Positions 1,548 to 62,257 of a stretch of DNA of 64,000 nucleotides are shown piece after piece (position 1 is the stretch's first letter; every line of letters starts with the position of its first letter). The stretch lies in assembly GCA_964016885.1 (NCBI GenBank), contig OZ024749.1:45198001-45262000 (forward strand). The letters are read 5' to 3'. The translations under genes were made by a program, and so were the position numbers. Source of the stretch: Eledone cirrhosa (Eukaryota). The notes below the pieces were generated by a model, which saw only the letters and a list, made by a program, of their open reading frames with translations, had not been told where the DNA came from and searched no databases.

Positions 1548-1597
<50 letters not shown>

Positions 1598-1869
1598 GAT
1601 TGGTGCTCTGAAATAGCGATGTATGTGTAGTATGTTTGGCAATATACCGTATGTTTAATTAAAAACATTTAGAAGACCATACGATATAAGTTTTAAAGTA
1701 GTCACCATATAGTGACTACATTCATATATACATCGCTATTTCAGAACACCAGTCCTAGTACCTAATTTTTGCTGGACCTGCAATCGTTCTGTATAATCAG
1801 CTCCTGATTATTACTGGAATTCTATAAGAATCCAGCTTCTATAATTTCGGCGGGACCAGGGGAGTGCGT

Positions 1870-1911
1870 GGCTCTGATGAACACCAGCCAGCGTGAAACA
1901 GACTGTCAGCT
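1870..1911 (+). ncRNA. Minimal type I hammerhead (family C)
   Basis: GGCU CUGAUGA ACAC-CAGCCA-GCGU GAA ACAGACUGU C AGCU. Confidence 0.8.
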
Positions 1912-2189
1912 TCTCTCCTTTCTTTCGCCGAAAAGAATTAAGTGACACAGTCACTACTTTAAAACTGATATCGTATGGTCTTCTAAATGTTTTTTTAATT
2001 AAACATACGGTATATTGCCAAATATACTATAAATACATACATACATGTGTGTGTGTGTATGAATGTATTTATAGTATATTTGCCAATATACCGTATGTTT
2101 AATTAAAAAAACATTTAGAAGACCATACGATATCAGTTTTAAAGTAGTGACTGTGTCACTTAATTCTTTTCGGCGAAAGAAAGGAGAGA

Positions 2190-3319: not shown

Positions 3320-3513
3320 AGGGCGATGGATTGGCAATATCGGTAGAGCGTCAGACACCATGCTTTGCAGCATAGCGTTATGCTCCTTTACGTTCTGAGT
3401 TCAGATCCCGAAGAGGTTTAGTTTGCCTTTCATACTTACGAGGTCGATAAAATAAAACACCAATAATGCACTGTAGTAATTGCTTGCCTTCTCCCAAAAG
3501 TAGAAACATAATT
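3320..3513 (+). mobile_element. S1 SINE, diverged
   Basis: Aligns by eye with 1336-1523. Confidence 0.88.
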
Positions 3514-3904: not shown

Positions 3905-4124
3905 ATATTTATTAAAATAACAGATTAAAGTTTAAGCAAAGAATCGCTGCTTTCACCCTTAACGGGATCTTCAGAAGATCCCGTTAAAGGTGAAAGCAGC
4001 GATTCTTTGCTTAAACTTTAATCTGTTATTTTAATAAATATTTGCTCTACGGTTCTTATATATTTGATATATATTTATCCTTATCGAGCCCTCTTTGGAT
4101 TTTAGTCTTCAAATTTATTATTAT

Positions 4125-47723: not shown

Positions 47724-49310
<1,587 letters not shown>

Positions 49311-49386
49311 ATATATATATAGAGAGAGATATGTATATATATATATATACATATATGTATGTGTATATATATAGAGAGAGATATGC

Positions 49387-49490
<104 letters not shown>

Positions 49491-50549
49491 ATATATATAT
49501 ATGTATATATTCAAACACGTGTGTGTGTGTATGTAATTTCTCTATGTATGATTATGTGTGTGCTTGCGTGTATGTGTGAGAGTATGTATGCCTAGCATAG
49601 TGAAGTGAAACGAATGGGGAATGAAACGCAGTTGACAAAGGGATGTATGCTATTGTTGGTACTAAGAAATGGAAGGTTATCTCATGCTGTTTTATTAACA
49701 ATGAATTTGTTCATTCTGTTTGTAGTGTTGTTTGGTGGAACCAGTGGTGGGTAGTGTCTAGCTTTTTATTATGTCTTACATGTAAATACATACTCACTTA
49801 CATACTATATATATATATATAAATAAATGTGTGTATGTGTTTGTGTATATATGTATTTATGTATATATATATATATAAATATAAACATATTCTTTTATTC
49901 TTTTATTTATTTGACTCAGCCATTGAACTGCTGTCCTGCTTGAGCGTAGAACTCAGGTGTTTAGTCGATAGTATCGATTGCAGTTTGTATTTCATCAATC
50001 ATTATTTGTCGAAGCGCTATGTTACGGTGATATAAATATATACAACGCAGGAGTTTGGGACGGTAAACATAAAAACAATGGCATTCAGTCACACACAATC
50101 ACACACACACACAAGCACACAAACACTAACACACTGATAGAGAGCGGGGCATGTATATATATATATATATATACATAAGTATATGTAGCACATATTCAGT
50201 ATATAATTCACATACACTTTGTTTTTCTTTTATATGTTGGCTTCAAATTTTGACCAGTACATAAGGCGCATGCTAGTTTTTGCCAACCTGTTGCAACTTC
50301 ATTTAATACTACATTAAAACAAAAAAATCACGGATGAAATAATCTTAACAAATGGCAATATAGTCCAGGAAAATTCTGGGAATCATAAATATACCAATTT
50401 GATTTTAACTCTTTGAAATGATTGAAACATATAACTAATACTTTGAAATGATCACTCCTTGATTGCCCGATGATAGATGCAACATCTGATGGAGATTAGG
50501 GTTACAACTGTCGGACAGAGAAATTTGCATACATGTTTCGTTCTCGTCA

Positions 50550-50752: not shown

Positions 50753-50819
50753 TTTTATTATGCGCATTTCAAAAACAAACATCATCAAACAATAATATTT
50801 GTGTTTTCATCAGATAAAA
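50753..50819 (-). ncRNA. Minimal type I hammerhead (family L, left arm)
   Basis: Exact inverse of 50953-51019. Confidence 0.87.
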
Positions 50820-50952
50820 CAGGAGAACATGATATGAAGGCTAAAAAAACACTTGTTGATAGTGCAGTTTTAAATCAACATATCCATGATATGTTGATTT
50901 AAAACTGCACTATCAACAAGTGTTTTTTTAGCCTTCATATCATGTTCTCCTG

Positions 50953-51019
50953 TTTTATCTGATGAAAACACAAATATTATTGTTTGATGATGTTTGTTTT
51001 TGAAATGCGCATAATAAAA
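50953..51019 (+). ncRNA. Minimal type I hammerhead (family L)
   Basis: UUUUAU CUGAUGA AAAC-ACAAAUAUUAUU-GUUU-GAUGAUGUUUGU-UUUU GAA AUGCGCAU A AUAAAA. Confidence 0.87.
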
Positions 51020-52189: not shown

Positions 52190-52191
<2 letters not shown>

Positions 52192-52630
52192 CCGCCTCTT
52201 CATTGTTGTTGTGGAGTCTGTGCTGCTGTACGGGTCTGAGACTTGGACACTGACCAAGAAACTCACTCACATGGTGGATGGGTGTTACACCAGAATGCTG
52301 AGGATGGCTCTGAACATTAATCAGTATACACTGAGGATGAACAATTCAGAGCTGTATGGGAGCCTCCCAAAAGTGAGCTCAAAAGTGATACAGAGGAGAG
52401 TGAGGTTAGCTGGACATGCTCACCGACATCCAGAGTTGACATTGCACTCAGTGCTCCTGTGGGAGCCCCTACATGGACACATTGGAAGAGGAAGACCAAG
52501 GTTAACGTATGTTGATGCCCTAAGGACAGACACTGGTCTGTTGGAGACGCAGGACATGGTAGCGATAATGAGGGACAGAGACCGCTGGAGAGAACTCGTC
52601 CATGGATCTCGGGAATTTTACCCGCCCTAG
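52190..52630 (+). mobile_element. RTE-type (RTE-X-like) LINE 3' end, open frame
   Basis: ESVLLYGSETWTLT..DGCYTRMLRMAL..LAGH..RHPE..GRP motifs; joined to (TA)n. Confidence 0.88.
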
Positions 52631-61939: not shown

Positions 61940-62166
61940 AGTTTTATTATAGATGAGATTCTACAGGAATAGAACTGTTTCATTCATTAGAAATCATCAG
62001 GAAGTTTCCTGATGATTTCATTAGAAATCATCAGGAGTTTCCTGATGATTTCTAATGAATGAAACAGTTCTAGTCCTGTAGAATCTCATCTATATTAAAA
62101 CTGTTATACTCTGCTATGTATTGAGTACCTTACTTACTGTGGTTACCTCCGATTCAACCCGGAATA
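61940..62166. mobile_element. Family G fold-back with two hammerheads (61955-62003 minus, 62035-62087 plus)
   Basis: GAGUUUC CUGAUGA U-UUC-UAAU-GAA-U GAA ACAG-UUCUAGUC-CUGU A GAAUCUC; four CTGATGA copies around the apex. Confidence 0.87.
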
Positions 62167-62168
62167 AC

Positions 62169-62257
<89 letters not shown>

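Follow-up and report, generated by a model that had tools for sequence, protein, structure and literature searches.

How does a fragment of a dispersed repeat come to read from the 3′ end of a neighboring copy directly into that copy's own start? The stretch of DNA analyzed here, a window of 64,000 nucleotides from Eledone cirrhosa (G000:C9:45198001-45262000, in a 3.0-Gb, AT-rich genome), raises this question near its left end. A minus-strand fragment at 1594-1705 matches first the 3′ end of a plus-strand copy (82 of 89 positions identical) and then its start (30 of 33). A sequence-only reading of the locus had taken this order as a sign of a circularly permuted family, designated family C, with one hammerhead in a ~305-nt monomer and a circular or tandem RNA as its template. 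An exact 32-mer spanning the end-to-start junction occurs 1,281 times in the genome and its reversed control not at all, so the junction is family-wide and not a chance arrangement, and the contrary outcome, other copies lacking it, was not found. Family C has 2,705 first-look candidates genome-wide.

The unit of family C is 316 nt (314-317 in 15 of 16 measurements). The ~305-nt figure traces to this one fragment, in which 12 nt are missing from between two ATACAT repeats, a private deletion located near 1625. The spacer is full at 142 of 159 family C junctions and short at only three, the window's included; since the deletion is rare and the period is 314-317, the unit is 316 nt and not 305. 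Unit positions (q) are numbered from window position 1730, which places the predicted cut at q178|179 (q179|180 in the mapping reference, L007).

The segment at 1859-1918 (+), read by eye against the hammerhead consensus, is what we take to be a type I hammerhead. Its core, CTGATGA..GAAA..TC, lies at 1874-1907 with the predicted cut at 1907|1908, and consists of the core box (1874-1880), a 4-bp stem II (1881-1894), GAAA (1895-1898) and a 3-bp helix III. Stem I (GCU/AGC, 3 bp) is extended beyond an internal loop by a distal GGAG/CUCC pairing. Stem II has one mismatch in the plus copy and is intact in a further copy at 2063-2277. A TATA-like motif at 1822-1830 (+), ~30 nt upstream of stem I and kept in family C and in the sibling family D described below, is a putative promoter. 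An Rfam scan of the window at the gathering score gave no matches, and the minimum-energy fold of the isolated hammerhead is not a hammerhead and is no more stable than shuffled sequences (z = −0.02). Whole units closed into circles fold stably (z = −5.1 for D and, for C, −5.3 in one copy and −3.0 in another, 40 shuffles each). Family C RNA is predicted to cleave itself, and its template is probably circular.

The unit is non-coding, low in GC and carries one hammerhead motif, as expected of a retrozyme in both size and motif, and no long ORF crosses the window copy. These properties are those of metazoan non-LTR retrozymes (PMC7229834; bioRxiv 10.64898/2026.07.22.740005), which are described as 150-450-bp non-coding tandem units with one type I hammerhead each, a GC content below 50%, monomers and short multimers, a stable circular fold and co-occurring Penelope-type elements (PLEs). 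Circular RNA and cleavage were shown there, whereas family C is known here from genomic sequence. Family C belongs to this known class of type I hammerhead non-LTR retrozymes, and is itself new.

In the window, the pieces at 1593-1705 (−) and 1717-2040 (+) are the head-to-head arms of one old insertion, with a short filler (1706-1716) joining their 5′ ends. The left arm runs through unit positions ~221-316 and then 1-31, and includes the end-to-start junction and a tail of ~35 nt; its 3′ end adjoins a (TA)n microsatellite (1565-1592), the probable target site, and most family C 3′ ends have the same context. The right arm begins at ~1717 with the unit's final ~13 nt, runs once round the complete unit and slightly beyond, by a few nucleotides, and lacks the tail. 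Beyond it, a microsatellite (2041-2062) forms the center of a tail-to-tail palindrome, followed by a nearly identical copy, in inverted orientation, of the 3′ two-thirds of the right arm (2063-2277, −) with a second hammerhead (core 2227-2221). This third copy differs from the plus arm at three positions in 196 nt, has eight rare alleles in common with it, and is likely a later local fold-back duplication. The locus is not a tandem array: no two of its hammerheads lie in direct orientation, and therefore double cleavage would release no unit-length monomer from it.

The same anatomy recurs genome-wide. We mapped 93 loci picked by the exact hammerhead pattern (from the first 100 of 335 listed places) and 40 further loci picked by the junction pattern (out of 1,281). 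The 3′ ends are fixed at two points ~35 nt apart, E1 (q~310) and E2 (q~31-35), where 126 of 154 hammerhead-chosen arms and 63 of 77 junction-chosen arms terminate; no 3′ end falls near the cut site among the 154 hammerhead-chosen arms. The sequence that follows is mostly (TA)n, and the 5′ ends are scattered. Head-to-head arms were present at 35 of the 93 and 23 of the 40 loci. Among the 39 two-armed inserts with both ends classifiable, a count that leaves out 19 head-to-head loci with an unclassified arm, 36 combine E1 with E2, three have E1 twice and none has E2 twice. The window insertion obeys this one-of-each rule, with E2 at the end of the arm at 1593-1705 and E1 at the end of the arm at 1717-2040. 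Tail-to-tail copies were seen in 5 of the 93 loci in the early 3′-context mapping, which includes microsatellite noise; the end classes were taken from later mapping. Tandem copies, which the sequence-only reading had proposed to look for, exist in the sampled loci with a period of 316 rather than ~305 nt: 9 of 133 loci have arms with two or three hammerheads (10 of 231 arms in all), and the longest sampled arm has 3.5 units. Across the 133 loci, there is neither a common continuation beyond the unit into a longer element, the other outcome that would have spoken against that reading, nor an ORF with reverse transcriptase (RT) and GIY-YIG domains after the tail. By this measure, family C is not an autonomous PLE.

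These ends point to the way in which PLEs insert. The PLE protein, a predicted dimer, cuts and extends both strands of AT-rich DNA, and its RT starts at two internal sites bounding the tail (Frangieh et al. 2024, PMC11167929). PLEs form partial tandems with inverted 5′ copies, often carry the tail at one end only, and target microsatellites (Craig et al. 2021, PMC8557442). Family C shows a tail spacing of 30-40 bp, an inverted 5′-truncated copy at the 5′ end and a microsatellite target, and its two fixed 3′ sites with (TA)n flanks correspond to the pair of RT start sites on either side of the 30-40-bp PLE tail (PMC11167929). This double-priming anatomy explains the minus fragment. The earlier reading was right about the junction and the hammerhead, finds support on the retrozyme identity, the circular permutation and the circular-or-tandem template, and was wrong about the unit size; it overlooked the two arms, the third copy and the PLE-type priming. 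Circular retrozyme RNAs have been shown and PLEs proposed as helpers (Cervera & de la Peña 2020, PMC7229834), and retrozymes have been linked to pLTRs (Li et al., bioRxiv 10.64898/2026.07.22.740005). For the movement of animal retrozymes, and for the inverted arms and optional tail of PLEs, the literature offers help from PLEs and circular templates as hypotheses. The retrozyme insertions examined here bear the PLE signature directly, which is unusually direct genomic evidence for the proposed mechanism, reached from an ordinary old C copy.

How the arms pass the cut site bears on the form of the template. Of the 39 junction-chosen arms that reach q190, 36 read through the cut and two stop there, and 3 of 77 5′ ends lie at the cut against 2.7 expected. 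This test supersedes a first one (4 of 149 at the cut), which was biased because its loci had been picked with a sequence pattern that includes the cut. Two seeming 5′ pile-ups, at 211 and 254, were judged to be artefacts of the reference copy's own variants. Rare alleles are common to the arms of a locus at 0.55 per 100 nt and to its units at 0.50, versus 0.13 between loci, and none of 2,000 resamples reached the within-locus sharing; part of it could stem from membership in one subfamily or from conversion after insertion.

The strongest evidence on arrays comes from family D and not from family C itself. A 310-bp D array lies upstream of one C copy and has 67% identity to C along the entire unit. 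The D core has 4,225 exact genome matches, dispersed and near-identical, in head-to-head arrays. Its hammerhead stems differ in sequence from those of C and retain pairing. Family D (L033:168-860 and L211-L241, e.g., G000:C1:5388000-5393500 and C1:238101200-238109400) is homologous to C and is a very young hammerhead retrozyme with a 310-bp unit. We examined 30 D loci, 10 by position and 20 picked through two variant patterns. Two arms are present at 27 of them, all 27 with one E1 and one E2 end, and arm length ranges from 0.5 to 14.4 units; one of 58 5′ ends lies at the cut (2.1 expected). The 30 loci hold 17 haplotypes, which are locus-specific and fixed in nearly all units of both arms. Non-fixed changes number 51 in 80,731 nt (80.7 kb); among 263 units, a single one lies near the cut site. 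In 27 cases a non-fixed variant is confined to one arm, versus two sites shared in register (L228, L237). Five of the 30 loci are mosaic (L221, L222, L228, L235/L241, and L237), and in L241 (4176-6201) the haplotype switches inside one arm after four units. A-to-I editing was considered as a source of D variants and rejected: A>G was inflated by the choice of loci, and T>C is the commonest change.

We propose that family C is a retrozyme copied by a Penelope-type RT that rolls round a circular RNA, with double target priming on a monomeric circle, and consider this account probable. Multimeric loci would be transcribed, their hammerheads would excise monomers, and a host ligase would close these into circles. 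A PLE protein with RT and GIY-YIG domains would nick both strands of a (TA)n target and start two cDNAs at internal RNA positions, one at E1 and the other at E2, which lies ~35 nt further downstream. Both cDNAs would then pass the cut site and the junction for a variable length before their 5′ ends join. The PLE helper and the single template molecule per insertion are likewise inferred. A circle is favored as template because the arms read through the cut, 5′ ends are not in excess there, D haplotypes are fixed and alleles are shared within loci.

Fixed haplotypes would equally follow if the template were a self-cleaved linear monomer and the RT jumped from end to end at the cut site, and a few 5′ ends do lie at the cut (L002, L302, and L311). 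End-to-end jumps by RT leave scars; with 263 D units showing just one non-fixed change close to the cut, and with no excess of 5′ ends at that point, such jumping is very improbable. We regard an origin of the arrays at the DNA level as no more credible. In the model of bioRxiv 10.64898/2026.07.22.740005, solo pLTR-like inserts would grow into arrays by local tandem duplication, unequal crossover, conversion or extrachromosomal DNA circles. In its favor, the third copy in the window likely arose by local duplication, 5 of 93 loci have tail-to-tail copies, and conversion would account for the mosaics; against this, all D arrays end at E1 or E2 with free 5′ junctions, both inverted D arms are multimeric with a common haplotype, and the arrays are dispersed and near-identical.

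Family E serves as a control for a linear template. This family (window 61942-62170) is a two-armed mini-insert, the pLTR of a young autonomous PLE, and its core has 3,910 exact matches. Many E copies are tiny palindromes ending just past the TATA box, and the ends of 16 of 30 E arms cluster within 5 nt of a single position ~27 nt past this box, a 5′ pile-up as expected from linear RNA; C and D have no pile-up beyond the null, their best windows lying within it. This difference bears on the main rival, which keeps the PLE double priming and makes the template an uncut linear (or circular) multimeric array transcript, the hammerhead being incidental. The mosaic D loci and the two in-register sites are consistent with it, and three C arms with two hammerheads begin at unit positions 126-131, close to the inferred start site. 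In vitro, the anole PLE used mainly uncut RNA, and its insertion did not need hammerhead cleavage (PMC11167929). However, haplotypes fixed across whole arrays would need a repeated one-unit bottleneck, 27 non-fixed D variants are not common to both arms, no significant 5′ pile-up exists in C or D whereas E has one, and arrays copied linearly with 5′ truncation should shorten over the generations. We hold a multimeric transcript to be unlikely. The mosaic loci also weigh against one monomer circle in every D event, since such a circle could yield them only through a switch of template or through conversion at a later stage; multimeric templates are another possible source. We see about even chances for a more specific form of the circle account. 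A PLE dimer would sit on one hammerhead-made circle and prime both target strands at two sites 35 nt apart, and both RTs would chase each other round the circle, writing head-to-head arrays with as many as 14 units in an arm; the tail would be the offset between the subunits' start sites, and D would be doing so now. The near-strict rule of one tail per insertion suggests that each start site is tied to one of the two target strands.

A candidate helper is present in the same genome. At L279:4165-6438 (−), an intact 758-residue stop-to-stop family E frame with RT and C-terminal GIY-YIG domains lies between two hammerhead-like cores; Pfam finds GIY-YIG only at E = 0.019, and the RT motifs were read by eye. 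The hammerhead cores of D and E agree at 26 of 28 nt, a score that none of 100 shuffles equalled, and C and E have no significant match. A by-eye likeness of the C and E tails was dropped, as 63 of 100 shuffles were equally good. Twelve tandem E cores with an uneven period of ~1,030-1,110 bp stand beside a long PLE frame at G000:C1:83679785-83691708 (L280, L281). Two abundant PLE families have 53,831 and 15,725 first-look candidates, and PLE ORFs are plentiful; comparison of their 3′ regions revealed separate insertions lying close by and no connection to C or D, and none of the three PLE families examined includes an autonomous element sharing sequence with C. The family with 15,725 candidates (L152-L175) has a degenerate hammerhead core and an optional ~35-nt tail, and ends at TTCAT before (TA)n, like E1 of family C. 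Because this genome contains both the young family D, with its 310-nt unit, and an intact frame for a possible helper, the model can be tested in vitro and by RNA analysis.

Family C shares with the PLE pLTR and tail (PMC11167929; PMC8557442) the partial tandems, the inverted 5′-truncated 5′ copy, the microsatellite targets, the often single-ended 30-40-bp tail and a hammerhead upstream of two RT start sites. In contrast to PLEs, it has no ORF, the sequence past its tail closes into its own 316-nt unit, and it does not match the pLTRs of the three PLE families examined. Non-autonomous Chlamys PLEs such as MRC1 (PMC8557442) likewise form pLTRs and multicopy head-to-tail insertions, but unlike C they resemble autonomous partners at the 3′ end, and canonical hammerheads are absent from most Chlamys. 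The one-ended tail has already been noted qualitatively for PLEs. Two arms with PLE start sites characterize C, while the main texts of the published retrozyme papers do not mention 'head-to-head', 'tail', or 'inverted' arms. Neither two-armed retrozyme arrays nor a one-of-each start-site rule is described in the literature searched, which included PMC7761336, few subscription papers and no supplements.

Other parts of the window carry similar motifs. A hammerhead-like motif with short stems (CTGATGA..GAAA) at 12866-12833 (−) lies between (TA)n runs and is probably a further PLE or retrozyme end. Motifs like the hammerhead core, with short palindromic repeats resembling double-armed PLE ends, occur at 1-55 (−), 8897 (−), 50813-50959, 3960-4000, and 58799; that at 50813-50959 resembles the 3′ end of an abundant PLE family. 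Copies of a dispersed SINE-like repeat, recurrent in many examined loci, lie at 1337-1520 and 3320-3510, and open frames at 48152-49510 (−) and 52190-52627 (+) resemble, by eye, fragments of LINE reverse transcriptases.
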